Source: Patescibacteria group bacterium (GTDB taxonomy: Bacteria; Patescibacteriota; UBA1384; 2-12-FULL-50-11). From it: DNA of 64,000 bases. The DNA is taken from assembly GCA_038058635.1 (NCBI GenBank), contig JBBUAP010000004.1, positions 31,196-95,195 of the forward strand, in the 5' to 3' direction. Within the stretch, counting starts at the first letter, position 1. Each line of letters starts with the position of its first letter. Position numbers and translations under genes: made by a program. The notes below the pieces were generated by a model. It was not told the DNA's origin and ran no database searches. It was given only the letters and a program-made list of their open reading frames with translations. Of the stretch, positions 1,865 through 47,830 are shown one piece after another.

Positions 1865-2953
1865 TTGAGTTACCACCCAATGGCTAAAACCGACTCTCTA
1901 TTCACCTCTCTCTTCGTTCGGGTTAATCACAAAGACCGAGCGTTTCTGGCTCGCCAGCTGGCAGTAATGTTGGAGTCCGGACTGCCAATCACCCAAGCGA
2001 TTCGCTCGTTAATCGAGCAGACCAAGAACCCGTTAATGGAAGAGGTTCTCCAGGTCGTTTTGGTGGACTTAGAGAACGGCTTAAAATTTTCCGTCGCTAT
2101 CAAAAAACATCCTCAGGTTTTCAACGACGTCTTTGTCTCGGTCATTGCTTCCGGTGAAGTGACCGGTCAGCTCGATGTCGTTGCCAACTTGCTGGCCGAC
2201 GAGCTGGAGCGCGATCAGGGTTTCCGAAGCCGAGTCATCGGCGCGTTGTTGTACCCGGCCTTCATCATCATGGCGATGATTGTCGTCGGGATCATTATGG
2301 TCACTAAGATCGTCCCGGCGCTGGAGTTGGTTTTCAAGGAAGCCAACGCCACCTTGCCCTGGACGACCCTGACTGTCATCGCCATCACCAACAGCTTGAT
2401 TTACTACTGGTATGTTTATATTATCGTCATCGTCGGCGGTATTTTTGGTTTGTCGCGCTATCTAGCAACCGTCGACGGTCGACGAAACTCCAACGGCCTC
2501 CTGCTCAAAATCCCGGCCTTCGGGACGATGTTACGCAATATGGAAATGGCTCGCTTCACCCGCATTTTTGGCTTGATGATGCAGGCCGGCGTGCCAATAA
2601 TTCAAGCCCTCGATTCTGTCGCCATGGTTTTGGATAATGTTTTGTACAAGGAATCGCTCAATGTTGTCGCTCGCAATGTCGAGCGCGGCTCACCGATTGC
2701 CCAGTCCTTACAGCGCGACAATTTGTTTCCCGCTACCGTCACCCAAATGATCGCCGTTGGCGAACAGACCGGCAAACTCGAGCAGGTTTTACATAAGCTA
2801 GCTAACTATTACGAAGAGGAAACTAACCAATCAATTAAAAATATTACCGCCTTGACCGAACCGGTCATCTTCATCATCGTCGGTCTCGGTGTCGCTTTTC
2901 TCGTCTTTTCAATCATCGTCCCGATCTACAACCTAGCATCGGTGATAAAGTAA
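1865..2953 (+). CDS. pilC: Type IV pilus platform protein PilC (GspF family)
   Basis: 362 aa polytopic membrane protein with two T2SSF-like repeats (GEVTGQLD..., GEQTGKLEQVL) and the conserved GspF/PilC architecture. Confidence 0.85.
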   Translation: MSYHPMAKTDSLFTSLFVRVNHKDRAFLARQLAVMLESGLPITQAIRSLIEQTKNPLMEEVLQVVLVDLENGLKFSVAIKKHPQVFNDVFVSVIASGEVTGQLDVVANLLADELERDQGFRSRVIGALLYPAFIIMAMIVVGIIMVTKIVPALELVFKEANATLPWTTLTVIAITNSLIYYWYVYIIVIVGGIFGLSRYLATVDGRRNSNGLLLKIPAFGTMLRNMEMARFTRIFGLMMQAGVPIIQALDSVAMVLDNVLYKESLNVVARNVERGSPIAQSLQRDNLFPATVTQMIAVGEQTGKLEQVLHKLANYYEEETNQSIKNITALTEPVIFIIVGLGVAFLVFSIIVPIYNLASVIK

Positions 2954-3152
2954 TGTCAGGAATTACGAAATAACTCGATCCTATTTTAGTAACTTCGAAA
3001 GAAGTGAAAAGCGAGCGTTAGCGACATTCAGTAATTTTTCCCTCTCTTTGCCTCGACTCGCTTGACAAGATTCTAGACACAGTTAATAGTGGTATTAATG
3101 GCTTTCACCAGTCTTAAGACGAGAGGGGTGGTCGACGAAGGTCCAAATGATG

Positions 3153-3170
3153 GGCAAGCGAAAGCTTGCC
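3153..3170 (+). promoter_or_regulatory. 5' UTR stem-loop with GAAA tetraloop upstream of the major pilin gene
   Basis: ggcaagc-gaaa-gcttgcc forms a perfect 7 bp stem about 75 nt upstream of a strong AGGAGG RBS. Confidence 0.4.
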
Positions 3171-3243
3171 ATGACAGGCGTTCGCTTGCCGCGATGTTAA
3201 TTACGCAGCGGCATGCACGCTCATCATTAGAAATAGGAGGAAA

Positions 3244-3804
3244 ATGATAAAAACATTACAAAAAAGAGCTTTTACGCTCATCGAACTCTTGGTGGTTATT
3301 GCCATCATCGGTATCTTGGCTTCGCTTATTATCGTCTCGCTGTCAGGCGCACGTGGTAAAGCCCAGGACACACAACGCAAAAACAATGCTCGAAATTTGG
3401 ATAGTGCCCTATCTCAGCACTATGTCGATAAGTCTGGCTATCCATCGGACGCGGGTTCTGCCGCAGCGAATGGCGCAACTGCAGATGGTGGTAGCGCAAC
3501 CTGTGCTGCTCCTTTGGTAGCTAGCCTAGTAGGTGCTTACTTGACATCCGGTACCGCTTGTGACGAGTTGAGTACTAGCGCAACCGCTGTTTCTCGATAT
3601 GCAACATCTGCAAACACGAGTGGCCTAGCAAGTTACTACTCGCTAGGTTGGGGTCTAGCGGCTACAGCTGATTCTACAGTCACGGTTGGCAACGGTGTTT
3701 ATACCACAGCCGATGGATCGCTTAACCTACCACAGGTGGACTTCACAATTGCGAGTCCCTGGGCTGATGCCCAACTAGTCTTCGTTGTTTACGGTCCGCA
3801 GTAG
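3244..3804 (+). CDS. pilA: Type IV (major) pilin, class III signal peptide
   Basis: MIKTLQKRA|FTLIELLVVIAIIGILA: prepilin leader plus the invariant E5 hydrophobic helix; strong RBS; followed by a strong terminator. Confidence 0.8.
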   Translation: MIKTLQKRAFTLIELLVVIAIIGILASLIIVSLSGARGKAQDTQRKNNARNLDSALSQHYVDKSGYPSDAGSAAANGATADGGSATCAAPLVASLVGAYLTSGTACDELSTSATAVSRYATSANTSGLASYYSLGWGLAATADSTVTVGNGVYTTADGSLNLPQVDFTIASPWADAQLVFVVYGPQ

Positions 3805-17997: not shown

Positions 17998-19332
17998 ATG
18001 CTTCAGATTTACAACACTCTTTCCGGTAAGAAGGAAAAGTTTAAGTCGATTAAGCCCAAGAAAGTTGGCATGTATGTTTGTGGTCCAACGGTTTACGACT
18101 ACGGTCATGTTGGTCACGCCCGAACCTATCTAACTTTCGACCTCCTCAACCGATTCTTAGAATATCTTGGCTATAAGGTTAATTATGTTCAAAACATCAC
18201 TGACGTTGGGAACCTAGTAGGGGACGCTGAAACAGGTACAGATAAGATCAAGAAGAAGGCCCAGGAGACTGGCGAGAGTATTGGCGATATTGTGCGACAT
18301 TATACCGAGGCACACCTGGAAGATCTGAAATCCCTCAATATTCTCGAACCAAGCAATTCACCTAAAGCATCAGAGCATATCGCTGATATAATAAAATATA
18401 TCAAGGAGCTAATTACGCTTGGTTACGCCTATGTTACCGACGAGGGTAATGTCTACTTCAGCGTTAATAAAAAACCAGATTACGGCAAATTAAGCCACCG
18501 CGGACTCGCCGAAATTCTTACCGGCACTAGGGTTGAATCAGCCAAAGATAAGCGAATTGTGGCCGATTTTGCCCTTTGGAAAGCCGCTCCAACCGGAGCG
18601 ACAGAAATGGTTTGGGACTCACCCTGGGGTAAGGGATTCCCTGGATGGCACATCGAGTGCTCGGTTATGAGCCAGAAATACTTGGGCGATACTTTTGATA
18701 TTCACGGTTCAGCCGTCGAGCATGTCTTCCCGCATCACGAGAACGAGATCGCTCAAGCCGAGGCCAAAACCGACCAACCTCTGGCTAATTACTGGATTCA
18801 CTCGGGGATGCTGACAGTAAATGGGCGCAAGATGAGCAAATCGCTCAGTAACACCGTTCGTGTAACCGACGCCCTCAAGGACTATTCTGCTAATGAAATC
18901 CGTTTGGCCTTTTTCCAAACACCATACCGCCAACCGTTTGATTACACCCGAGAATCGATGACTCAAGGGATAGCACTCCGCTCCAAACTCTTCAGCGCTT
19001 ACATGGTTGCGAAGGTCGGAGGAGACGAGGAGCAGTTTACAGGTATAATTGACGCAATATCCGACGACCTCGATACTCATCGAGCCCTAGACTTGTGGTC
19101 GGAGTACGCCAAGGATTTAAGCCGAGAGCAGTTCGAGAAACTGTTTGACATCTTTGGATTAAAGTTCGTGGCGATCGAAGATAATCCTCAAGCCAAGAAA
19201 CTCACTGACGAACGGCAAGAAGCCAGAACCAGCAGAGACTTCCTCACTGCCGACAACCGCCGGACAGAAATCGAGCAATTGGGTTACGAGGTAGAAGACA
19301 CCGATTCTGGCTCGCGCTACATTCCGAGATAG
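17998..19332 (+). CDS. cysS: Cysteinyl-tRNA synthetase
   Basis: HIGH motif (HVGHARTY), CysRS zinc-binding residues and KMSKS (RKMSKSLSN). Confidence 0.95.
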   Translation: MLQIYNTLSGKKEKFKSIKPKKVGMYVCGPTVYDYGHVGHARTYLTFDLLNRFLEYLGYKVNYVQNITDVGNLVGDAETGTDKIKKKAQETGESIGDIVRHYTEAHLEDLKSLNILEPSNSPKASEHIADIIKYIKELITLGYAYVTDEGNVYFSVNKKPDYGKLSHRGLAEILTGTRVESAKDKRIVADFALWKAAPTGATEMVWDSPWGKGFPGWHIECSVMSQKYLGDTFDIHGSAVEHVFPHHENEIAQAEAKTDQPLANYWIHSGMLTVNGRKMSKSLSNTVRVTDALKDYSANEIRLAFFQTPYRQPFDYTRESMTQGIALRSKLFSAYMVAKVGGDEEQFTGIIDAISDDLDTHRALDLWSEYAKDLSREQFEKLFDIFGLKFVAIEDNPQAKKLTDERQEARTSRDFLTADNRRTEIEQLGYEVEDTDSGSRYIPR

Positions 19333-19356
19333 TATATATTTATTACCTGAAAACTA

Positions 19357-19385
19357 TTGACTTCCTTATATAATTAAGGTATATT
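19357..19385 (+). promoter_or_regulatory. Sigma70-like promoter (TTGACT-17-TATATT)
   Basis: The -35 is TTGACT, the spacer is 17 nt (tccttatataattaagg) and the -10 is TATATT, upstream of a GC-rich structured leader. Confidence 0.5.
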
Positions 19386-19426
19386 CTCACCGTACGTTAA
19401 GCGACCGAAATTCGTCGGCGCCGTCT

Positions 19427-19515
19427 CGGCTGGGATTTGGGAGAGCCGTCACATGAGTTGCCCTCGGGCTTCTCGACGGTTTCCCTCCTTCCCTTTTCCT
19501 GGCTGAGACGGCGCT
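19427..19515 (+). ncRNA. Structured GC-rich 5' leader element (unknown class) closed by a 10 bp stem
   Basis: gcgccgtctc ... gagacggcgc encloses about 65 nt that include a polypyrimidine tract tttccctccttcccttttcc (anti-SD-like). Confidence 0.35.
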
Positions 19516-19589
19516 GATGAACGCATTCGCTTGACGCGTTTGTTTACATCAACGACTACGATATGAGCCCCGCAAGGGGCGAGGTGGAT

Positions 19590-20513
19590 ATGAGAAAAGT
19601 ACTATGGATCATCGTCGCCCTGTTGGTTGCCACTCAGGCATTCGCGGGGCGATACAAGAAAACCTGGGAGGATGTCGGCCAAGTCTCCGTCGCGCTTTTC
19701 GACGACGAAGACGGGCACCAGAAGATCCTCTTCCGAGGATTACCAATGACAGCTGACCGGACACCAGGTCCCGCAGTCATGCGGTTCAACGGTGTCAACA
19801 TCGCTCAATGGAATGCGCCGACTTACGAATTCGAGTTCGATGTCGACGCCGGGTTCATCCCCGCTCTGCAGGGCAACCCAAGAAAGGGTGGCGAGTTGGT
19901 GATTCCGTGGCTGAAGAGCGACGCGAATCAGAAAGTCGATTTACGGCGGCTTGCCGTTGGCAAGAATACCGTCGAGATTTACTTTCTGTCTAAGGACGGT
20001 AACGGCAAACTGGACCGAAACCGAAGCGCTGCGCCAGCAACGCAATTTATCCTTGAGGAGACAGACCCGCCTCCAGCGGCCAATACCGCGAAAGGTGAAG
20101 TCTTGTCCACTACCCAGCTCGAAGCTGCGATCAAGCAGTCCTACGAGCAGGGAGCGAGTGAGGGCAAAGCCGCTGCCGCGCAAGAGCGCGAACAGCTGCT
20201 AGTTGAGTTGAAGAAGGCAACAGACGAGCTCAACGAGCTCCGTCGGCAAGTTGCCTTGAATACTCAGCCGAGAACAATGCCTTTGGGGCAGCGCTACCTA
20301 CCAATCAAATGCCAACTGCGGCAGGAGGATTGGCCCAAACTGGGTGATGAAATGGAATTGGTGGATTCGGCCGGAAGGTCGGTTGCCAAGGCCAAAGTAG
20401 TCGAGACTGTTCACGGGATCGGTCGATACTGGATCTCGGTGACCGTTCCGGTCGACTTCGACCCGGCTGGTCACACTGTACGGCGGCCGAACGGCCGCAA
20501 GGAGAATAGGTAA
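19590..20513 (+). CDS. Secreted hypothetical protein with C-terminal coiled coil (ORF opens at 19563; probable start at the second Met)
   Basis: Signal peptide MRKVLWIIVALLVATQAFAG begins at the second Met, which follows a GAGGTGG RBS; the coiled-coil-like segment is EQLLVELKKATDELNELRRQVAL. Confidence 0.5.
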   Translation: MRKVLWIIVALLVATQAFAGRYKKTWEDVGQVSVALFDDEDGHQKILFRGLPMTADRTPGPAVMRFNGVNIAQWNAPTYEFEFDVDAGFIPALQGNPRKGGELVIPWLKSDANQKVDLRRLAVGKNTVEIYFLSKDGNGKLDRNRSAAPATQFILEETDPPPAANTAKGEVLSTTQLEAAIKQSYEQGASEGKAAAAQEREQLLVELKKATDELNELRRQVALNTQPRTMPLGQRYLPIKCQLRQEDWPKLGDEMELVDSAGRSVAKAKVVETVHGIGRYWISVTVPVDFDPAGHTVRRPNGRKENR

Positions 20514-20517
20514 GGAC

Positions 20518-21483
20518 ATGAAACTCCTGAAAGTTTTACTCGCGGCTTTGGCCGCGAGTCTCGTCATTCCGGTCTTTGCTCAGAACGAAGGCGAGTACCT
20601 GGATCTATCCAAGGACCAGTTCGTAGCTGGGGGTATGACCTCAAGCGGGATCGCCAATGAGCTCTTGCCGGCTTTTGCTGGCTATGCTCCGAAGGAGAAG
20701 GCCGACGAGGTGATCTCGTTTGCCTTCAACTACGATATCCCGAAGCTTCAACTAGCTTTTCGGGATTCGAAAGGGAAGGTGCACACTCGCACCGGCAAGC
20801 TCGCCAAAGGCGAGAAGCTCATTTCGACGGTCAACTCCAAAACTCGCCAAGGTGGCATTTGGTTGGTTGACGCGACTGTGCGTTGGGCGCAGCATTGCGG
20901 TAACCCGCTGCCGTCACCCTTCCGGGTGACGCTCTGGATCCCGGACTGGTCGCAAGACCGGATCGTCGTCCAGAGAGTGGAAATACTGAAACCATATGCT
21001 GTCACGGTCCGTGAAAATGTCATCGTTCAGCAACTGATTCCAACCCTCGGCAATGTGGAGCTCAACCTGCCGCCGGTGGAGCGCGGCCGGTACAAGCTGA
21101 CGGTCGTTGGAAACGAGGGCGCAGGACATCGCTGGGAGTATGTGAAGTCCTTCTGGGACAACTTCCTAGACTTCCTGCGCGTTGCCGCTTTCCCGATCGG
21201 ACAACTCGTTCGTCGGGCGGACAACCTATCCATCAACACCTCCTCGCAAGGAGGAGCGGGTGGCAATGGTTATGGTGCAGCGGCAGCGGCTGCTTCATCC
21301 TCGTCTTCGTCGTCCTCGACGTCGGCGACGCCAACCTCCGCAGCCGGTACTTCTGGCTCTGGCGGATCGTCTGCTGGCGGCGCTGCTGGCGGAGGCGGCA
21401 ACGACACGACAGGAACCGGTTCGGGCGGAATGCCTGAATTGGTTCTCTTCTTTGAGCGGACTTGGTTGCAAGTCGCAGCCTAG
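20518..21483 (+). CDS. Secreted hypothetical protein with Gly/Ser/Ala-rich C-terminal region
   Basis: Signal peptide MKLLKVLLAALAASLVIPVFAQ; low-complexity tail [31 protein letters not shown]... Confidence 0.5.
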   Translation: MKLLKVLLAALAASLVIPVFAQNEGEYLDLSKDQFVAGGMTSSGIANELLPAFAGYAPKEKADEVISFAFNYDIPKLQLAFRDSKGKVHTRTGKLAKGEKLISTVNSKTRQGGIWLVDATVRWAQHCGNPLPSPFRVTLWIPDWSQDRIVVQRVEILKPYAVTVRENVIVQQLIPTLGNVELNLPPVERGRYKLTVVGNEGAGHRWEYVKSFWDNFLDFLRVAAFPIGQLVRRADNLSINTSSQGGAGGNGYGAAAAAASSSSSSSSTSATPTSAAGTSGSGGSSAGGAAGGGGNDTTGTGSGGMPELVLFFERTWLQVAA

Positions 21484-21494
21484 TTCGCTATCCT

Positions 21495-21526
21495 GGCCAA
21501 ATCACACAGCGCTGTGTGATTTGGCC
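21495..21526. promoter_or_regulatory. Perfect 32 bp palindrome between the surface-protein genes
   Basis: GGCCAAATCACACAGCGCTGTGTGATTTGGCC has perfect dyad symmetry; it could be an operator or an intercistronic hairpin. Confidence 0.5.
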
Positions 21527-21594
21527 TCATCCCATGCCTAACTAATGGTCGATTGGTTGGGAATGTAGATGAATATAAGTAAAGGAGAATAATA

Positions 21595-22203
21595 ATGAAT
21601 AAAGTAATTATTTCAATTCTTGGAGTTATTGTCGCAACTGGCTTTGCCGGAACGGTGTTTGCCGCTTCGACAAGCTCAAGTTCTACAAGCTCAACCAGCT
21701 CTTCTGTCGTCGTTTCTAACGGTAACGGTGGTGCTGCCGCTTCGAGTGGTGCATCAGGCGCTGCTTCAGCTTCATCCGGTAACGGTGCCTCTAGTGCATC
21801 TGCTGCTAGCTCTTCGAGTTCAGCTGCGGTTGCCAATGGTGCCGCGGCTAGCTCCGGTTCTGCCGGCTCTAGCTCAAGTGGATCAAGCTCGGGTTCCAGC
21901 GCTTCTAGCGCCGCCAGCTCTTCAGCTTCTGCGGGTGGCAAAACAATTGTCGCCTCAGACAAGAAGGACTGTCCTAGCGCTTCAGCCAGTGCTGCCGCCG
22001 CTGCTTCTAGCTCTTCAGCTAGTTCAGCTGCTGCCGCCAAAGCTGCTTGCTCCACTACTGCCAAGGTTGTTACAACCAAGTCAGTAAAAAGCCTGCCTGC
22101 AACCGGTGCCGAAACGGCCCTGTTGCCAGGTGCTATGGCTATGTTTGCCCTTGCGGCTCGACGCTTCGCGTTGGCCAAAAAGGAAGCAAGTCTCTTGGCC
22201 TAA
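21595..22203 (+). CDS. LPXTG-anchored Ser/Ala-rich cell-surface protein (sortase substrate)
   Basis: Signal peptide MNKVIISILGVIVATGFAGTVFA; the C-terminus carries LPATG, a hydrophobic stretch (AETALLPGAMAMFALAA) and a basic tail (RRFALAKK). Confidence 0.6.
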   Translation: MNKVIISILGVIVATGFAGTVFAASTSSSSTSSTSSSVVVSNGNGGAAASSGASGAASASSGNGASSASAASSSSSAAVANGAAASSGSAGSSSSGSSSGSSASSAASSSASAGGKTIVASDKKDCPSASASAAAAASSSSASSAAAAKAACSTTAKVVTTKSVKSLPATGAETALLPGAMAMFALAARRFALAKKEASLLA

Positions 22204-22248
22204 CCGCTAAGAGTTGTCGAAAGGCTTCGGCCTCAAGACAAAGAAAAT

Positions 22249-22274
22249 GACCTCGCAAGAGGTCTTTTTCTTTT
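22249..22274 (+). terminator. Rho-independent terminator after the surface-protein operon
   Basis: gacctcgcaagaggtc followed by tttttctttt. Confidence 0.75.
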
Positions 22275-22314
22275 GACTCAAGATTTTTTGTTGGTTAACG
22301 GATACAATAGATAC

Positions 22315-23304
22315 ATGAGCAATCAGGAACGGAAAGCGGAGTTGGCCGAAACTTTACGGATTGACGAAAAGTCAGCGCGGATTAAACACATCGAGGCCGA
22401 AATGGCGACGCCGTCTTTTTGGCAGGAACACCAGCGAGCGGCCAAGCTAACCCAAGAGTTGAAGCATCTGCAGGACTTTGTGGCGGAATTTGAGCTAGCC
22501 GAGACAGATGCAGAGTTAGAAAAGCTGGAAACTGAGGCTTTTTTCTCCGGCGATCACGACGATTCTTCTTGTTTTGTCGGCATTCATTCCGGCTCGGGTG
22601 GCGTCGATGCCCAAGATTGGGCGGAGATGTTGGCTCGGATGTACACTCGCTACGGCGAAAGAGCCGACTACAAAGTCACCCTACTCGATCAAGCCGACGG
22701 TGAGGAGGCGGGAATCAAAAGCGCGACCCTACTAATCGAAGGGTTCAGAGCATATGGCAAGCTCAAAGCCGAGAACGGTGTTCATCGATTAGTCCGGATT
22801 AGTCCGTTTGATGCTGCCAAAGCCAGGCACACTTCGTTTGCCCTGGTCGAGGTCGTCCCCGAAGTGGCGGACGCCAGAGAGATTGAAATCAAGCCCGAGG
22901 AGATTCGAATAGATGTTTACCGTGCTGGTGGACACGGCGGTCAGGGCGTTAACACCACCGACTCGGCGGTCCGAATCACCCACTTACCCACCAAAATTGT
23001 TGTTACCTGTCAAAACGAGCGTAGCCAATTGCAAAATAAGGCTCAAGCGCTTAAGATTCTTCAGGGGAAGCTTCAGTTACTAGACGATGAGAAGAGACGC
23101 ATCGCCAACCAAAATCATAAGGGCGAGCCGGTTCTGGCCAGCTGGGGCAATCAGATTCGTTCATATATTCTTCAGCCATACCAGATGGTTAAGGATCTGC
23201 GGAGTGGCTACGAGACCTCCGGCGTTGACGATATTCTTGACGGACACTTAGAGAACATAATTGAAGCAAATATAAAATACTTCGCTAATTTAAAGAAAGG
23301 ATAA
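22315..23304 (+). CDS. prfB: Peptide chain release factor 2 (no programmed frameshift evident)
   Basis: SPF tripeptide (RISPFDAAK), GGQ motif (GGHGGQGVNTTDSAVRITHLPT); the ORF is continuous from the ATG at 22315 (TTG at 22273). Confidence 0.9.
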   Translation: MSNQERKAELAETLRIDEKSARIKHIEAEMATPSFWQEHQRAAKLTQELKHLQDFVAEFELAETDAELEKLETEAFFSGDHDDSSCFVGIHSGSGGVDAQDWAEMLARMYTRYGERADYKVTLLDQADGEEAGIKSATLLIEGFRAYGKLKAENGVHRLVRISPFDAAKARHTSFALVEVVPEVADAREIEIKPEEIRIDVYRAGGHGGQGVNTTDSAVRITHLPTKIVVTCQNERSQLQNKAQALKILQGKLQLLDDEKRRIANQNHKGEPVLASWGNQIRSYILQPYQMVKDLRSGYETSGVDDILDGHLENIIEANIKYFANLKKG

Positions 23305-28547: not shown

Positions 28548-29330
28548 ATGGACGAAACGCAAACAAAACTTAAAAAACTGCGCACATTCAACCGGGTGAT
28601 GTTTTTCTTACATGCGGCGCAAGGCGTGGCAATTCTACTCTTGAGCACCAACTTCACAGTACCCGTCAATGCTAGCTATCTGACATTTGATGTCGCAACA
28701 CAATCGCTCCTGCCGGCCTCGAGCGAACTATTTCGAATGTCGCTCGCCTGGCTTGTGGCGGCGTTTTTCTTTATCTCGGCTTTTGCCCACCTTTCGATCG
28801 CCACCTACTACAACAAAAACTACAATGCCAATCTCCTGCGCGGCCTGAACAAAGCTCGTTGGTGGGAGTACTCGATCTCAGCGTCGATAATGCTGATCGC
28901 CATCGCCATGCTGGTGGGAATATATGATTTCGGTACCTTAGTGCTGATATTTGGCCTCGGCGCGGCGATGAATATGATGGGCCTGATGATGGAAACGCAC
29001 AATTTGGGTGTGCTCGAGCGCGGCGACAAGCCGAATTGGCTAGCATTCAAACTCGGCTCGTTTGCTGGAGTAATTCCGTGGCTAATAATTGCCTTGGGTT
29101 TTTACTGGAGCAGCCGATTTAGCGGCGCTCAACCACCAACATTCGTTTACTGGATTTACGTTTCAATCTTCGTTTTCTTCAACTGCTTTGCGATTAATAT
29201 GTTCCTGCAGTACAAGCAAATCGGCCGTTGGCGCGACTACCTCTACGGCGAGCGAGCGTTTATTATCTTAAGCTTGGTCGCCAAGTCTTTATTGGCCTGG
29301 CAGGTTTTTGCCGGAACACTCCGGCCGTAA
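28548..29330 (+). CDS. Heliorhodopsin (inverted-topology microbial rhodopsin)
   Basis: 260 aa 7-TM protein; it aligns with heliorhodopsin 48C12 across FNR...HxxQ, RWWEYxxSASxM (counterion Glu) and IGRWRDY...LSLVAKSLLAWQV (Schiff-base Lys in TM7). Confidence 0.85.
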   Translation: MDETQTKLKKLRTFNRVMFFLHAAQGVAILLLSTNFTVPVNASYLTFDVATQSLLPASSELFRMSLAWLVAAFFFISAFAHLSIATYYNKNYNANLLRGLNKARWWEYSISASIMLIAIAMLVGIYDFGTLVLIFGLGAAMNMMGLMMETHNLGVLERGDKPNWLAFKLGSFAGVIPWLIIALGFYWSSRFSGAQPPTFVYWIYVSIFVFFNCFAINMFLQYKQIGRWRDYLYGERAFIILSLVAKSLLAWQVFAGTLRP

Positions 29331-34212: not shown

Positions 34213-34524
34213 ATGGTGGAGAGGGGAAAGCGGCCAGAGTTCCAAACAGGGGCGCCCGAAATAAAAGTGGCACCGGAATTTCCGGGGGACGATAGCTCTT
34301 CTAGTTTCGAACACAATCCGGCTGGTTTACCGTCTGCCACTCCTGAAATTACACCGGCTCCATCAGTATCCTCTCCAGAATCGAGATTACCATCTGACGG
34401 AGAGCCTGTGATTCATAGCCACGACCAGACGGTGGGTTTTGAGGAAATTCCTAAAGGTGAAAATACGCTGCGTGACCAAGATACGGTCGACGCAGTGTTT
34501 GAAAGGGAAGCAAGAAGTCAATGA
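34213..34524 (+). CDS. Small Pro/Ser-rich disordered protein (hypothetical), translationally coupled to the next gene
   Basis: 103 aa low-complexity protein; ATGA overlap with the downstream ATPase gene; no obvious SD, so the call is tentative. Confidence 0.35.
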   Translation: MVERGKRPEFQTGAPEIKVAPEFPGDDSSSSFEHNPAGLPSATPEITPAPSVSSPESRLPSDGEPVIHSHDQTVGFEEIPKGENTLRDQDTVDAVFEREARSQ

Positions 34525-36962
34525 GTGACTTTCTGCCGACCTATCTTATCTACACCATCTTAGCCGCGATTGTCATCCTGCCGTTGGCGCTAATGTGGTT
34601 TTTCCGTTATTGGCAGAAAAAGGATGCGCTAGGCGATGTTAACTCTTTAGTTTGTCTATTGGTGTCGCTGCCGAAAGAAGCGACCATCGATCCGCACGCC
34701 GCCAACGAACCCGTCAAAGACTTCAAGGGTTTGATTGCGCCGACAGAACAATTTTACTCGGCGCTAACAACAATAATTCACCAGCGTCATTTTATCGACT
34801 GGCTTTTTAGCACCCCCGCTCACATTAGCTTTGAAATCTATTCAGTCGGTGGCGTGATTTCGTTTGGAATTATCTGTCCAAAGCGGATTCGAACGATCGT
34901 TGAACGACAGGTTCACAGTTTTTTCCACAATGCTCAAATAGTCATTGGTGTCCCACCGAAGGTCTTCACTAGCGAACAAGAACATGTCTCGGGCGTTGTA
35001 TTCGAACAAGGTAAGAACTTTGTCCTCCCCCTCAAGACCTATCAGTATCTTGAGGCTGATCCGCTTAATACTCTAACGACAGCGCTGACCAAATTGCAGG
35101 GCTCGGGCGCCGCTACAATTCAAATGCTGATTCGGCCGATTAGCGACAATTGGCGGATGCACACTGGTATTGCCAGCGGCCATGTTGTCGCAAATAAAAT
35201 GCACCTCGTTAACCGGACTGGTACTGCTCGAGTTCTTGGTACCATTGGTGAAGCAATAAAAACCTCCCCACCGACAGAAATCTCAAAGCAAACCCAGCGC
35301 TCGCCAGCGCAAGAGGAGTTGCTAAAAGCCCTTCAAGAAAAAGGCAATAAAACTGGCTTCGAAACTATCATTCGAGTGCTGGCAACTGGCGACACTCCGA
35401 CGGCAGCCGAAGAAAACACCAAGGCATTGATTAGCTCCTTTTCCCAGTTTTACTCACCGCAATTAAATAGTCTGAAATACCGCCAGATCGAACAAAAACG
35501 AATTTCACGCGATTATCTGCTCCGACTGTTTTCCGGCGCGCCAAAGATGATTTTGAATGTCGAGGAGTTGGCTAGTATTTATCACTTCCCAAATCGTTTC
35601 AGCGAAGTCCCGGGGATGAAATGGGTCTTGGCCAAAACTTTGCCATCACCACCAAACTTGCCCAAAGAGGGAGTGGTCATTGGCGAAAGTAATTATCGAG
35701 GCGAAAAAAATCTAGTTCGACTTCAGGACGAAGACCGCCGTCGTCATATCTTTATGATTGGCAAAACTGGTACTGGTAAGACGACGCTCTTTGAGATGAT
35801 GATCGAGCAGGATATGCATAACGGCAAAGGGCTTTGCTTTATCGATCCACTTGGCGACGCCATCGAGTCGCTATTAAAGAAAGTGCCGACGCACCGGGCT
35901 AATGATGTGATTGTGTTTGACCCGTCCGATATCAAATTTCCACTTGGCTTAAATCTACTTGAATACACCAAACCCGAAGAAAAAGACTTCTTAATTCAGG
36001 AAGTAATCGAGATATTCTACAAACTGTTCGACCCGAACCGGACTGGTATCGTTGGACCCCAGTGGGAGCATTGGGCGCGCAATGCCGCCCTGACGGTGAT
36101 GAGTCGCCCCGAAGGAGGGAGCTTAATCGATTTGCCCCGTCTTTTTACCGACGACGCTTTCCGAGAGGAATCAGTTTCGTTTGTCAGAGACCCGGTTGTC
36201 AAAGCCTTCTGGGAGCAACAGCTAGCCAAAACGGCCGACTTTCACAAATCGGAGATGTATAACTATTTCATCTCTAAGTTTGGCCGATTTATGACCAACG
36301 ATTTGATGCGTAATATTATCGGACAAACCAAAAGCTCTTTTGACCTAAGGGAATTGATGGATTCCGGCAAGATTTTGTTCGTCAACCTCGCCAAAGGTAA
36401 AATTGGCGAGATTAACTCAAATCTATTGGGCTTAATTTTGGTTTCAAAAATCCAAGTCGCGGCTTTCAGTCGGGCAGATACGCCCGAAGAACAGCGGAAA
36501 GATTTCTATCTTTATGTCGATGAGTTTCAGAACTTTACAACCGATACTTTCGCGACGATATTGGCCGAAGCTCGCAAATATCGCCTCAATCTTAATGTCA
36601 CCAATCAGTATTTCGCCCAACTGACCGAACATATTCGTGACGCCGTTATTGGTAATGTGGGAACACTAATTTCCTATCGTATCGGTGCTGAGGACGGCGA
36701 GTATTTAGTCAAAGAAATGCCCGGACTAACGGCCGAAGACCTGACTAACCTTGATCGGTTCCAGGCATATGTTAAACTTCTAATCGATCTGACTCCAAGC
36801 AAGCCGTTCTCGCTTTCGGGTATCAAAAGTGCCAACCCTGGTTCAGTTGAGATGTCCGATTGGCTCAAAAAGTCCACCCGGGCTAAATATACCAAGCAAC
36901 CAGTTGTCTTTGCCCCGATTGCTAAACCAGCAGAATCACCAGTAACCACCCCAAAACCATGA
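34521..36962 (+). CDS. Single-TM membrane protein with C-terminal FtsK/HerA-superfamily P-loop ATPase domain, VirD4/TrwB (type IV coupling protein)-like (paralog 1, 813 aa)
   Basis: N-terminal TM helix; ~400 aa unassigned domain; Walker A FMIGKTGTGKTT; Walker B-like FYLYVDEFQNF; Arg finger-like ARKYRLNLNVTNQ; homologous along its length to the next gene. Confidence 0.6.
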   Translation: MSDFLPTYLIYTILAAIVILPLALMWFFRYWQKKDALGDVNSLVCLLVSLPKEATIDPHAANEPVKDFKGLIAPTEQFYSALTTIIHQRHFIDWLFSTPAHISFEIYSVGGVISFGIICPKRIRTIVERQVHSFFHNAQIVIGVPPKVFTSEQEHVSGVVFEQGKNFVLPLKTYQYLEADPLNTLTTALTKLQGSGAATIQMLIRPISDNWRMHTGIASGHVVANKMHLVNRTGTARVLGTIGEAIKTSPPTEISKQTQRSPAQEELLKALQEKGNKTGFETIIRVLATGDTPTAAEENTKALISSFSQFYSPQLNSLKYRQIEQKRISRDYLLRLFSGAPKMILNVEELASIYHFPNRFSEVPGMKWVLAKTLPSPPNLPKEGVVIGESNYRGEKNLVRLQDEDRRRHIFMIGKTGTGKTTLFEMMIEQDMHNGKGLCFIDPLGDAIESLLKKVPTHRANDVIVFDPSDIKFPLGLNLLEYTKPEEKDFLIQEVIEIFYKLFDPNRTGIVGPQWEHWARNAALTVMSRPEGGSLIDLPRLFTDDAFREESVSFVRDPVVKAFWEQQLAKTADFHKSEMYNYFISKFGRFMTNDLMRNIIGQTKSSFDLRELMDSGKILFVNLAKGKIGEINSNLLGLILVSKIQVAAFSRADTPEEQRKDFYLYVDEFQNFTTDTFATILAEARKYRLNLNVTNQYFAQLTEHIRDAVIGNVGTLISYRIGAEDGEYLVKEMPGLTAEDLTNLDRFQAYVKLLIDLTPSKPFSLSGIKSANPGSVEMSDWLKKSTRAKYTKQPVVFAPIAKPAESPVTTPKP

Positions 36963-39900
36963 ATGTAGCGTTAATCAACCTAATCTTCACCGGCCTCTTT
37001 CTATTCGGGGCAACAATGTTGTGGTATCGGGCCAACAAATTTCGCAAGAAAATAAATTGGGAGGAGCCAGGCGCTTACAGCTTACTTTGCATTTCCGTGC
37101 CGAAAAACAACGAACGAACTCCCCAAGCGGCCGAGCAAATGTTTGCGGCCATGCACGGCATTTTCCGCTCTAGCGCCCAGCAACAGGCCCACCTTAGTTT
37201 TGAGATTGTTTCCAAAGCCCACGCCATCAATTTTTACACCTACGTGCCGACGGATTTGCGAGACTTCGTCTCGAGTCAAATTTTCGCTCAATATCCTACT
37301 GTCGAAATCAGGGAAATCGCGCCTGACGATGACTACACGACCTTAACCGACGAGAAACATATTGCCGCTACTGAACTTGATTTGAAAAAACCGACCGCTT
37401 TTCCGATTAAAACTTTTCAAAACTTTGAAGTTGATCCGCTCTCATCGATTGCTGGCGCTCTCTCCTCGGTCAATGAACAGGAGGAGGTTTGGGTACAGGT
37501 ACTGATCAGACCAATCGATGACGACTGGCAGGACTTGGGTAAAACCGAGGTTAAAAAGCTGAAAGATGGCTTCAAGTCGTTGGGTTTGAGGCAATTACTA
37601 AAAGCCGAGCTAAAGACCATGCTTTTCGATCTGACCAAGCACGCCCTAACAGGTCCACCTCCCGAAGAGAAGAAAAAAGACGACAAGAAAAAGGACGAGA
37701 AAGACACGCCGGAGTCGGCAGCGATTAAGGCGATCGAAGAGAAAATTACTAAACTCGGTTTCGCCACCAACATTCGAATTTTAGCGGCTGGTAGCGACGA
37801 GTATTCGGCTCGGGCTAAACTAGAACAGGTGGTCGGTGCTTTCAAACAATTCAATACTATCAACCTTAACGCCTTTATAGCTAAAGACATTACCAGCGAT
37901 CGGGCCGCTCATGAACTTTTTACGAGTAGAGTTTTTGGAGAGCACACCATGATTTTTAATATCACCGAACTGGCCTCAGTTTATCACTACCCATCGGAAA
38001 CAGTGGCGACCCCGACGATTGCCTGGGCGGGTTCAAAAAAGGGCGAACCACCAGCCAATCTGCCACTAGAAAATGTCGTGCCGGCCGACGAGCTAACAGT
38101 GTTTGGCCAGACTAACTTCCGTAGTCAGGTAAAGAGGTTTGGTATCAAAAGGAAAGATCGTCGCTTGCATATGTACATTATCGGTAAAACCGGCACCGGT
38201 AAATCGACGCTGATGGAGAATATGATTATCGACGATATTAATGAAGGCAGGGGAATGGCCGTAGTCGATCCACACGGTTCGCTCATTCAACATGTACTAG
38301 AATTTATCCCCGAAAACAGAATTCAGGATGTGATCTATTTTAACCCAGCCGATCACGAACACCCCGTCGGGTTCAATTTATTAGAAAATGTCGATCCCGA
38401 ACAGAAGAATATTGTTGCCTCCGGAGTAATCGGCATTATGGAGAAGATTTTCGGCGAAGTCTCTTGGGGCCCGCGATTGGAGTACATTTTGCGCAATGTT
38501 ATTTTAGCGCTTTTAGAATACCCAAACTCTACTTTCATGGGCATTATGAGAATATTGACCGACAACGCTTACCGACGACTGGTCGTCAACGAAGTCAAAG
38601 ATCCGGTCATTCGCGACTTCTTCATTAACGAGTTTGAGAAGTACGAGCCAAAGTTTCGAACTGAAGCGATCGCCCCGATTCAAAATAAGGTCGGCCAGTT
38701 TCTATCGGCCTCAACGATTCGCAACATTGTCGGCCAGCCTAAATCGACTATTGATATCCGCCGCATTATGGACGAGGGCAAAATACTCTTAGCTGACTTA
38801 TCGATCGGTAAGATCGGGGAAGACAACTCCGCCCTACTTGGCTCGATGTTGATTACCAAAATTCAGTTGGCGGCGATGGGGCGAGTCGATACGGCTGAAA
38901 GTGAACGGCGCGATTTTTACTTGTATGTTGATGAGTTTCAGAACTTTGCGACCGAATCGTTTGCGACTATTCTGTCGGAAGCCCGCAAGTACCGTCTCAA
39001 TCTGGCGATGGCCAACCAATATACGGCCCAAATGCCGGAAGCCGTTTCTAATGCCGTCTTTGGCAATGTCGGGACGATGATCAGCTTCCGCGTTGGGGCG
39101 CAAGATGCCGACACCTTGGTTAAAGAGTACGAGCCAGTCTTTGACGCTAATGACTTAGTTAATCTAGATAACTTCCAGATATACCTAAAGATGGCCATCG
39201 ACGGCGTGACTGTACCGGCCTTTTCGGCTGGTACATTGCCACCACGTACGGAGAAAACTCATCTTGTCGATCAAATCATTGCCAACAGTCGTCTGATGTA
39301 CTCACGACCGGTTGAGGAGGTAGAAGATTACATCACCGAATGGTCAACACCGATAAATTTGTCAGACCCTTCGAAGCAACCGATACCTCAACCCTACGAA
39401 GAACTGAAGACAAAGCCCAACGCCTTCGAGAAAGATAAAGCTCGCTCTCCAATCATCGGAGTAGAAGAGCAATCTAGTCCCCAGCCCCTAGCTCCTAGTC
39501 CCGACGAAGTAGGGGAGAGCGAAGAAAAAAAGGAAGCCGAAAAGGCGCCAAAAGTATTTGAGGAAGAGGGGACTGAAGCGACGAAAGCGGCCAAGACAGA
39601 GCCGGGTCGGGTGGAATTACCAAGAGGCATCAAGACCGAAATTATCAAAGACAGATTCGATCGACAGTGGTATGCGGTGACGGAAGAGGGCAAGATTCAA
39701 GGACCAGGATTAAAGAGTCAAGAGTTAAGTGATAATACTTCAGATGAGTCCAGTGTCCAGTCCCCAGTTCCTAGTCCCACTGAAAGTGGGGGAGAGAGGC
39801 AAGCCGAAGAAGAGTCTAGTTCTCAGTCCCTAGCTCCTAGTTCCACCGAAAGTGGGGGAGCAGAAGTCGTAGAAAATACAGAGCCTCCGGTCCAGAGTGG

Positions 39901-40042
39901 GGGAGAGGCGACCGAAAAAGACCAATTGATTAGCTGGGATGATATTGAGCAGCTTGATATCCAAGCACCAATTGAGCCAGTTAGCGAGCCAGTTCAAAGC
40001 AGTCCCGATCAGGGCCTGACGCCCTTGGACGAAATCCGTTAA
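36959..40042 (+). CDS. Single-TM membrane protein with VirD4/TrwB/FtsK-like P-loop ATPase domain and long acidic repeat-containing C-terminal tail (paralog 2, 1027 aa)
   Basis: TM helix MNVALINLIFTGLFLFGATMLWY; Walker A MYIIGKTGTGKST; Walker B FYLYVDEFQNF; ARKYRLNLAMANQ; ~250 aa Glu/Ser/Pro-rich tail with three ~60 nt repeats. Confidence 0.6.
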   Translation: MNVALINLIFTGLFLFGATMLWYRANKFRKKINWEEPGAYSLLCISVPKNNERTPQAAEQMFAAMHGIFRSSAQQQAHLSFEIVSKAHAINFYTYVPTDLRDFVSSQIFAQYPTVEIREIAPDDDYTTLTDEKHIAATELDLKKPTAFPIKTFQNFEVDPLSSIAGALSSVNEQEEVWVQVLIRPIDDDWQDLGKTEVKKLKDGFKSLGLRQLLKAELKTMLFDLTKHALTGPPPEEKKKDDKKKDEKDTPESAAIKAIEEKITKLGFATNIRILAAGSDEYSARAKLEQVVGAFKQFNTINLNAFIAKDITSDRAAHELFTSRVFGEHTMIFNITELASVYHYPSETVATPTIAWAGSKKGEPPANLPLENVVPADELTVFGQTNFRSQVKRFGIKRKDRRLHMYIIGKTGTGKSTLMENMIIDDINEGRGMAVVDPHGSLIQHVLEFIPENRIQDVIYFNPADHEHPVGFNLLENVDPEQKNIVASGVIGIMEKIFGEVSWGPRLEYILRNVILALLEYPNSTFMGIMRILTDNAYRRLVVNEVKDPVIRDFFINEFEKYEPKFRTEAIAPIQNKVGQFLSASTIRNIVGQPKSTIDIRRIMDEGKILLADLSIGKIGEDNSALLGSMLITKIQLAAMGRVDTAESERRDFYLYVDEFQNFATESFATILSEARKYRLNLAMANQYTAQMPEAVSNAVFGNVGTMISFRVGAQDADTLVKEYEPVFDANDLVNLDNFQIYLKMAIDGVTVPAFSAGTLPPRTEKTHLVDQIIANSRLMYSRPVEEVEDYITEWSTPINLSDPSKQPIPQPYEELKTKPNAFEKDKARSPIIGVEEQSSPQPLAPSPDEVGESEEKKEAEKAPKVFEEEGTEATKAAKTEPGRVELPRGIKTEIIKDRFDRQWYAVTEEGKIQGPGLKSQELSDNTSDESSVQSPVPSPTESGGERQAEEESSSQSLAPSSTESGGAEVVENTEPPVQSGGEATEKDQLISWDDIEQLDIQAPIEPVSEPVQSSPDQGLTPLDEIR
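39473..39915 (+). repeat. Three-plus imperfect ~60-66 bp tandem-like repeats inside the 3' end of the paralog-2 CDS
   Basis: Repeated peptide SSxQ(S/P)LAPS(P/S)TESGGE..EE at 39473-39526, 39748-39813, 39814-39873 (partial copy at 39883-39915). Confidence 0.7.
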
Positions 40043-47634: not shown

Positions 47635-47830
47635 CGGTCTCCCTAAAATATCTTAACTTAGCGCAAAAAGATAGAGTCCCGCTTTGGTATCATCGAGGTG
47701 GTTGTCGTTCGCACAGTGGTATCGAAAGAGATGGGAGGGGGCACACCCTTTCGACACCGCCGCACTAACGAGCTACCTGATTTAGTAACCCTCCTTAATG
47801 TTGGCATCAATGTATCATAAAAGTATATGT
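47635..47830 (-). promoter_or_regulatory. Promoter (TTGACT-17-TACATT on minus strand) plus ~150 nt structured leader of the membrane-protein gene; candidate riboswitch of unknown class
   Basis: Minus-strand leader contains gtcgaaagggtgtgccccctccc and ccactgtgcg (resembling the GCCACTG element of cobalamin riboswitches), but the full consensus was not found. Confidence 0.3.

Follow-up and report, generated by a model that had tools for sequence, protein, structure and literature searches.

A conserved leader RNA and a sortase-type stalk protein frame exchangeable secreted proteins in a candidate surface cassette of Saccharimonadales

In the 64,000-nucleotide (nt) stretch of DNA analysed here, hereafter the window, which derives from a Patescibacteria group bacterium (contig JBBUAP010000004.1, positions 31,196 to 95,195), three same-strand open reading frames (ORFs), g1, g2 and g3, are flanked by cysS (17998-19332) and prfB (22273-23304). 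Comparison with about 24 related Saccharimonadales loci indicates that the frame around g1 and g2 is conserved, with a structured leader RNA upstream and the anchor gene g3 downstream, and that the pair itself represents one cassette type, composed of a gene A and a gene B, out of at least four that can replace one another. We read the three genes, with roughly even confidence, as one allele (type 1) of a polymorphic surface cassette in which a stalk with a sortase-type signal displays exchangeable secreted proteins. An earlier reading made from the letters alone (the sequence-only reading) had proposed three co-oriented genes for secreted proteins, the third carrying a sorting signal; the three same-strand ORFs are indeed present and a secreted or surface module of this kind is supported. 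The leader, a second conserved hairpin and the exchangeable cassettes, which lie outside or between the features described there, proved to be the more interesting content.

The order cysS ... A-B-g3-prfB is kept in every locus retrieved, and the shared layout consists of the leader, a secreted protein of 350-420 amino acids (aa), a secreted protein of 210-310 aa with a low-complexity tail, a hairpin, a g3-type anchor and prfB. Within this layout the first ORF after the leader clusters into at least four families, with type 1 found at 10 loci including the window, type 2 at six, type 3 at four and probably also at L024, and type 4 at L021 and probably also at L036; at several leader-bearing loci tblastn finds the g3 C terminus but neither g1 nor g2. 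Profile-profile comparison between the types (hhalign) returned probabilities of only 18-35%, by which remote homology is neither shown nor excluded. Judged by their sequences, the leader and the anchor are conserved clade-wide, while A and B fall into at least four families without detectable homology. Moreover, the cassette types are intermixed on a neighbour-joining tree of cysS, and within type 1 the divergence of the cassette is decoupled from that of its flanks: at L003, cysS and prfB are 85% and 94% identical to those of the window and g1 only 45%, and at L008 the values are 63% for cysS and 55% for g1. The sharpest switch is seen between L024 and L032, which are 100% identical over 1,090 nt up to ...CTGAGACGGCGCT, the 3' base of the leader, and 50-70% identical thereafter, so that the two contigs (oriented 2020-3273 and 1000-2260, respectively) encode different first cassette proteins; L032 is of type 1 and L024 provisionally of type 3, with only 30 aa of its gene A on the contig. 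Either recombination between co-occurring strains has left its breakpoint here, or the switch is an assembly chimera.

The proteins themselves have few relatives. Among 5.8 billion clusters, g1 and g2 have about 12 homologue clusters each, all matches with a source name belong to Patescibacteria or Saccharimonadales, and both genes occur on the same contigs; g1 is carried by four of 185,579 species-representative genomes. Scans with Pfam, NCBIfam and PHROG gave no match for g1, g2 or g3, and six proteins of the other cassette types had no match in Pfam. By these searches, the locus occurs only within a narrow clade of Saccharimonadales.

The best-conserved part of the locus is a rod-shaped leader RNA of 113 nt between cysS and g1 (Table 1). 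An alignment of the cysS-g1 spacers showed this segment to be far better conserved than the proteins, and DNA identity between loci has a local maximum there (92-97%, compared with 60-80% in cysS). The 3' strand of the leader was used as a pattern to scan metagenome contigs, which yielded 22 loci, 19 of them real; the remaining three (L019, L026 and L030) lack the 5' arm and were rejected as chance matches. All real loci that reach far enough upstream sit downstream of cysS. Twenty distinct sequences share a common fold: a basal helix of 25 bp is separated by an internal loop (3 nt/7 nt) from a GGGAG:CUCCU helix, and a bulge of 3 nt leads on to the apical helices. The strands GUCUCGGCUGGGA-UUU-GGGAGAG and UUUCCCUCCUUCCCUUUUCCUGGCUGAGAC are invariant, and the apical helices are variable and covarying. 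In the alignment of these 20 sequences 97.4% of the cells are paired and 20 of 43 pairs have changed on both sides, values that none of 500 shuffles reached, and controls with a slid structure gave at most 10 two-sided pairs. A covariance model scores the leader at 126 bits on the + strand versus 38 bits on the - strand (range over the loci 102-129 versus 28-42), and the copy in the window has a minimum free energy of -74.9 kcal/mol (z = -9.0). Rfam 15 returned no match at the gathering threshold over the whole window, and in a permissive Rfam search the best match to the leader was an irrelevant miRNA model with 19 bits against a gathering score of 62. Taken together, the comparative evidence identifies the leader as a well-supported new structured RNA. 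It occurs once per locus, and the covariance model finds no second copy in the window. A weak match to the model lies at 47703-47773 on the - strand (18.6 bits, E = 0.13) and is probably due to chance.

The leader is part of the cassette operon rather than of cysS, because at L006, L013 and L014, where other genes separate it from cysS, it still adjoins gene A directly. In 18 of 20 related loci an element of the form TTGACN-17-TAtatT precedes the leader at a constant distance, which places the rod at the 5' end of the transcript, and a promoter scan of the + strand from 19200 to 22500 found promoter-like sites solely upstream of the leader. A conserved promoter is thus predicted to drive a transcript that begins with the structured leader. 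CCUCCUU is the anti-Shine-Dalgarno sequence, and the GGGAG:CUCCU pairing within the invariant strands mimics a Shine-Dalgarno/anti-Shine-Dalgarno duplex. Since paired and unpaired nucleotides of the leader, including CCUCCUU, are invariant, their conservation implies recognition by a trans factor.

The products of g1 and g2 appear to be secreted without any attachment of their own. Hydropathy analysis gives each of them a single hydrophobic stretch, at the N terminus and followed by an AxA-type cleavage site; neither has a membrane or wall anchor, a C-terminal transmembrane segment or an LPXTG motif. The g1 protein combines a signal peptide with a beta-sandwich resembling immunoglobulin (Ig) or fibronectin type III (FN3) domains, a helix some 50 residues long and, at its C terminus, a small domain of beta structure; its fold matches are generic, to Ig/FN3 only. 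Besides its signal peptide, g2 has a beta-rich domain in which a CGNP motif is invariant, a helix that is conserved, the motif GGAGG and, at the C terminus, a low-complexity tail of Gly, Ser and Ala; its structure model was unreliable (predicted local distance difference test score, pLDDT, 38). The Gly/Ser/Ala-rich C-terminal tail had already been proposed in the sequence-only reading, as had the N-terminal signal peptides on all three products, and both proposals agree with our analysis.

It is this tail that may connect the cassette to the anchor protein. Low-complexity segments fall into three composition types, Ser/Ala/Gly (seven loci), Asn/Ser (L006, L018 and L034, each with a different cassette type) and Gln-rich (L021), and the B tail and the N-terminal stalk of g3 share the type in 11 of 11 genomes, for which the chance is 1 in 1,320 if types were assigned independently. 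Furthermore, the alignment score of the B tail and the stalk from the same genome is the best of its row and column for L006, L018 and L021, and at L006 and L018 tail and stalk are visibly the same sequence, e.g., NNNSNSNS..VVNTGSGSA. At the DNA level the two are only 68-80% identical over short stretches with synonymous differences, which rules out recent gene conversion as the cause of the likeness and argues for selection at the level of the protein. Given an anchorless A and B and a g3 devoid of globular domains, we consider it simplest to see g3 as a wall-linked stalk and B as the protein it holds.

The same observations bear on a different explanation, according to which the bacterium releases A and B freely as exoproteins, for instance enzymes, toxins or nutrient scavengers that act on its host, g3 is a neighbouring wall protein with no relation to them, and the low-complexity regions are only flexible, perhaps glycosylated spacers that follow the local mutational bias. 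Signal peptides on A and B without an anchor would fit this explanation, as would the hairpin between B and g3, which is terminator-like at several loci, and no interaction domain is detectable in any of the proteins. However, the three-gene order with g3 in last place is kept with all four cassette types, g3 by itself contains no functional domain, and the B tail tracks the stalk in all 11 genomes, including the Asn- and Gln-rich types that accompany different cassette families. We therefore regard free release as unlikely.

The anchor protein g3 has a signal peptide at its start, a low-complexity region of Ser, Ala and Gly, a pair of conserved cysteines and, towards the C terminus, a sorting signal with its hydrophobic segment and basic tail. 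Its N terminus, MNKVIISILGVIVATGFAGTVFA|AS, with hydrophobic residues 1-25 and an AxA-like site, is conserved in the orthologues. Serine, alanine and glycine make up 65% of the whole protein and 78% of the mature low-complexity core, in good agreement with the figure of about 70 percent given in the sequence-only reading. The C terminus reads LPATG-AETALLPGAMAMFALAA-RRFALAKKEASLLA, with the LPATG motif at 22093-22107 (residues 167-171 of 202), a mean Kyte-Doolittle hydropathy of 1.74 over residues 174-188 and a net charge of +3 on the tail RRFALAKKEASLLA, so that the succession of LPATG, hydrophobic segment and basic tail on which a sortase-type signal had been proposed is present and supports it. 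The sorting-signal region is a local maximum of DNA identity. All orthologues examined carry LPx[T/A]G, with L, P and G invariant and T or A at position 4 (LPATG in the window, L003 and L015; LPKAG in L006, L013 and L014; LPAAG and LPQAG elsewhere), which settles the earlier concern that LPATG might fail to be conserved, and beyond the motif the sequence AE..LLPG...F...R[RK]....[KR].EA...A is invariant. Apart from recognition by hidden Markov models (HMMs) and a sortase in the same genome, g3 fits the sequence definition of a sortase substrate. The two cysteines lie at residues ~127 and ~153 (CPSASA...AAKAxC) on either side of an Ala/Ser-rich stretch of about 25 residues and are kept in most orthologues; they may form a disulfide loop in the stalk.

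Several points weigh against a sortase-anchored display cassette. The cytoplasmic tail RRFALAKKEASLLA of g3 exceeds those of textbook sorting signals in both length and conservation, and g3 matched neither the Pfam model Gram_pos_anchor (PF00746, E <= 1) nor the NCBIfam LPXTG models (E <= 10), which is a weak negative because such short models are easily lost to the speed filters of HMMER. No sortase was found in the window or at any related locus fetched; for the window, where its absence had been stated before, this was confirmed by a scan for the TLxTC motif, by tblastn with an S. aureus SrtA sequence and by a Pfam scan of ten large ORFs. As the g2 model failed and the fold of g1 is only generically Ig/FN3, an adhesive function is conjecture. 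The composition match between tail and stalk could reflect a shared modification or shared spacer requirements, and the breakpoint between L024 and L032, both metagenome contigs, could be an assembly chimera at a shared repeat. A possible switch in the leader, with the downstream AUCAGCGAC as an alternative partner for the 3' strand of the basal helix, gave duplex energies no better than those of shuffled controls (mean z about -0.5), and this candidate expression-platform helix was dropped.

The features of the g3 C terminus could also describe a tail-anchored membrane protein, in which LPxxG-AE..LLPG and the KEAxLLA tail serve as a transmembrane and cytoplasmic module for another partner, e.g., a secretion or signalling component. 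The missing match to LPXTG anchor models, the alternation of T and A at the fourth motif position and the unusual conservation of the cytoplasmic tail all fit this explanation. Moreover, a search of 1.84 billion representatives with the last 41 residues of g3 found no more than four relatives, each a g3 fragment, and a word-indexed search for g3-type C termini in other proteins gave no candidates; with all four relatives in the g3 family, this C terminus is not a widely shared sorting signal. Sortases are, in addition, patchily distributed in the Candidate Phyla Radiation (CPR) outside Microgenomates (PMC6744442), and the same study reports a sortase family in more than half of CPR genomes. 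On the other side, the four textbook elements of a sorting signal are present in the correct order and spacing, the L, P and G do not vary, and LPxAG is accepted as a form of the sortase motif (PMC3436756) and is known among S. aureus sortase substrates (PMC3436756, PMC2629846). Sortases together with predicted sorted proteins have been reported from a TM7 genome (PMC3812714). In view of these points a tail-anchored protein seems to us possible but rather improbable.

Under the preferred reading, a polymorphic cassette displayed on a sortase-type stalk, a sortase encoded elsewhere in the genome would cleave g3 at LPATG and link it to peptidoglycan, and the stalk would hold B, and probably A through B, on the cell surface by like-with-like association with the B tail. 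A and B would be what the cell exposes and what diversifying selection acts on, plausibly as proteins that recognise a host or a surface, and recombination in the interval from the conserved leader to the anchor would exchange the cassettes. The leader may be an element that regulates or stabilises in cis and that a trans factor recognises, and the hairpin after B may set the ratio of the A-B transcript to the g3 transcript. A bolder version, to which we give a low probability, is that the locus represents an undescribed CPR display system, in which a peptidoglycan-anchored stalk without domains captures co-expressed secreted proteins by way of matching low-complexity segments (Ser/Ala, poly-Asn or poly-Gln), cassettes exchanged between strains set the host range, and the leader is a new class of ligand- or protein-responsive RNA that controls display.

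The spacer between g2 and g3 contains two hairpins. The first is the perfect 32-bp palindrome that had been noted between the second and third genes and that we confirm; it is the longest perfect hairpin in the window, where the arms of the runner-up measure 13 bp, and by our own arithmetic about 1.5e-5 such palindromes are expected by chance. Its RNA folds with -24.2 kcal/mol (z = -6.2) and is followed by UCAUCCCAUGCC without a U run, so that it lacks the U tract of a canonical intrinsic terminator. A strong GC-rich hairpin stands directly past the gene-B stop at every related locus, with the structure kept and the sequence not; at L008, L021, L018 and L006 U-rich tracts come next. L001 and L002, two public short-read contigs with exact g2, end 41 nt past the g2 stop and within the palindrome (window position 21524), which appears to break de Bruijn assemblies. 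The second hairpin (-18.2 kcal/mol, z = -3.8) shows compensatory changes in 8 of 18 pairs among eight sequences, and its GTCGA motif is found in all 12 spacers examined. When the g2-g3 spacer was inspected for a sigma-70 promoter that would serve g3 alone, no conserved -35/-10 pair was convincing, and expression of g3 may therefore depend on read-through or on processing of the operon mRNA. The terminator reported after the third gene is likewise borne out, with a hairpin at 22249-22264 followed by TTTTTCTTTT.

Table 1 Features of the cassette locus in the window (positions from the first letter of the window).
Feature	Position	Strand	Description
Sigma-70-type promoter	19357-19385	+	TTGACT-17-TATATT; predicted transcription start near 19392
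Leader RNA	19410-19522	+	Rod-shaped, 113 nt; covariation, fold energy, covariance model
Small hairpin GCCCCGCAAGGGGC	19567-19580	+	Adjoined by the g1 Shine-Dalgarno GAGGTG (19581-19586)
g1	19590-20513	+	Cassette gene A, type 1; 307 aa
g2	20518-21483	+	Cassette gene B, type 1; 321 aa
Antisense ORF of g3	21480-22178	-	232 aa; shadow of Ser/Ala codons
Perfect 32-nt palindrome	21495-21526	+	Just past the g2 stop; RNA hairpin of 14 bp with 4-nt loop
Second conserved hairpin	21527-21571	+	GUCGA-containing loop; upstream of the g3 Shine-Dalgarno
g3	21595-22203	+	Anchor/stalk protein; 202 aa
Bidirectional intrinsic terminator	22241-22272		A tract, stem GACCUC/GAGGUC, U tract

The base composition of the locus had raised the question of horizontal acquisition. 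The GC content at third codon positions (GC3) is 0.646 for g1 and 0.652 for g2, compared with 0.53 (standard deviation 0.05, maximum 0.653) for 42 other ORFs of the window, so that the claim of a GC3 above that of the neighbouring genes stands for these two genes; it fails for g3, which at 0.409 has the lowest GC3 in the window and, because of its Ser and Ala codons, a second-position GC content (GC2) of 0.744. At the 11 loci with a full gene set (the window, L003, L006, L013-L015, L017, L018, L021, L031 and L034), GC3 is 0.58-0.77 for A and B, 0.37-0.62 for cysS and prfB and 0.40-0.57 for g3, and A and B exceed the flanking housekeeping genes by 0.1-0.27 in every lineage and with all cassette types. 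A pattern found in 11 of 11 loci is a property of the cassette genes across the clade and not the mark of a recent import. Gene conversion with a GC bias, if the locus is a recombination hot spot, could be the cause, as could a shared pool of cassettes.

These values also bear on a further alternative, a self-contained, recently transferred three-gene adhesin or fibril operon in which g3 polymerises into an LPXTG-anchored Ser/Ala fibril. The GC3 of g1 and g2 about 2.3 standard deviations over the window mean, a low-complexity g3 ending in LPATG and the absence of homologues beyond a small clade would fit such an operon. Nevertheless, the same GC3 pattern recurs at all 11 loci whatever the GC3 of the flanks, the GC3 of g3 is the minimum of the window, synteny of the locus holds throughout the clade, g1 and g2 can be replaced and g3 cannot, and g3 lacks a pilin motif, an adjacent pilus-type sortase and a tandem-repeat architecture. 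A transferred fibril operon is thus, in our view, quite unlikely, and the horizontal acquisition proposed for testing by GC and codon usage finds no support in the GC3 values or in the synteny of the locus. Two related assignments were rejected as well: g3 as a sortase-assembled pilin, since it has no globular domain and no adjacent sortase and g1 and g2 lack LPXTG, and g3 as a serine-rich repeat glycoprotein of the Fap1/GspB kind, in view of its 202 aa, ordinary signal peptide, weak short tandem repeats and cysS/prfB neighbours. Such pilins carry a pilin-motif lysine and an E-box in an Ig-like (CnaA or CnaB) fold and adjoin a class C sortase, and Fap1/GspB proteins are very large, with two regions of serine-rich dipeptide repeats, a long, atypical signal peptide and a neighbouring accessory Sec system that comes with glycosyltransferases.

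The start of g1 needs correction with respect to the sequence-only reading, which had the cluster begin at 19563. An ORF does begin there, but this ATG has no Shine-Dalgarno sequence and overlaps a conserved hairpin, which has compensatory variants in g1-type loci (L008, L013, L014 and L023) and is absent before the other cassette types. The ATG at 19590 has a Shine-Dalgarno sequence 3 nt upstream and is the start used by public gene calls (307 aa) and by all orthologues, and because these three lines agree we place the likely start of g1 there. The start of g2 lies 4 nt past the g1 stop, and the two genes are predicted to be translationally coupled; g3 has a strong Shine-Dalgarno sequence of its own, AAAGGAG. 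The long antisense ORF opposite g3 that had been noticed earlier is present, and we reject it as a gene, since the + frame has a signal peptide, a Shine-Dalgarno sequence and the conserved sorting signal. At L003 (9848-10426, -), L004 and L005 a public gene caller annotated the antisense frame instead of g3, and exact look-ups in a public protein collection found neither the g3 of the window nor its antisense ORF on record. As gene callers often overlook the anchor gene or place it on the opposite strand, and assemblies frequently break at the palindrome, the locus is systematically under-represented in public protein sets.

Known systems that share traits with the locus include the Pam pili of Saccharibacteria and other CPR bacteria, which are formed by Sec-secreted Ig-like proteins encoded in an operon and have been proposed to mediate host contact (bioRxiv 10.64898/2026.03.03.709456). 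The pam operon is associated with ATP synthase genes and encodes PapD/FimC-like chaperones with C-terminal transmembrane helices and pilins with donor-strand exchange (bioRxiv 10.64898/2026.03.03.709456). Our locus is likewise CPR-restricted, Sec-secreted, Ig-like, previously unannotated and operon-encoded. It is set apart from the described Pam operons by its cysS-prfB context, by g1 and g2 without transmembrane segments and by a match that is only generically Ig/FN3, and we reject an assignment as a Pam pilus operon.

For g3 itself, the closest likeness is to wall proteins of Gram-positive bacteria. The S. aureus Sdr/Clf proteins, SasF and SasD (the latter two with LPXAG) and GspA of Actinomyces oris, all sortase-anchored with low-complexity wall-spanning regions, share with it a signal peptide, a Ser-rich low-complexity spacer, LPx[T/A]G, a hydrophobic segment and a basic tail. 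Unlike LPXTG/LPXAG wall proteins, g3 has no ligand-binding head, measures only 202 aa, carries a long conserved tail and is not matched by anchor HMMs. An anchored protein that holds a secreted partner is known from curli, where CsgB nucleates CsgA, and from the cellulosome with its anchoring scaffoldins and cohesin-dockerin pairs. The anchored g3 and the co-encoded secreted B with an anchor-like segment would resemble these as a functional analogy only, with no relationship in sequence or fold, and the association of B with g3 is suggested by their matched composition.

The genetic arrangement has its own parallels. Capsule and O-antigen loci combine a JUMPStart/ops leader with RfaH, the B. 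subtilis eps operon contains the EAR RNA, and LoaP leaders are a further case. Like these polymorphic surface-structure loci, the locus described here has conserved flanks around non-homologous alleles and a conserved leader before a surface operon; the analogy is again functional, as the cargo consists of proteins and not of polysaccharide enzymes, and the leader is unlike EAR or any other Rfam family. Structured 5' untranslated regions (UTRs) that stabilise abundant surface-protein mRNAs are known from S-layer genes, ompA and Firmicutes 5' stem-loops/Stab-SD, and the leader is comparable to them as a very stable stem-loop at a predicted 5' end with a Shine-Dalgarno-like GGGAG. In contrast to these, the GGGAG of the leader is paired inside the rod, and its near-invariant loops and helices across lineages point to specific recognition and not to a generic stabilising hairpin.

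Two further observations concern other parts of the window. A heliorhodopsin gene lies at 28548-29330 on the + strand (Pfam PF18761, E = 2e-92), and two adjacent, overlapping genes on the + strand (34521-36962 and 36959-40042) encode large VirD4/TrwB-like coupling-protein ATPases of type IV secretion.

Saccharibacteria and other Patescibacteria live attached to host bacteria, and we know of no host-recognition molecules beyond type IV pili and Pam pili; to our knowledge, very few regulatory RNAs have been described in this phylum. A conserved anchor and RNA combined with fully different exposed proteins is the signature expected of a determinant of host range or immune evasion, and the locus is thus a candidate host-recognition device in a small clade of ultrasmall Saccharibacteria. 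The exposed proteins differ completely between close relatives, and apparently even between co-occurring strains, which provides concrete candidates for the molecules by which these bacteria may recognise their hosts.

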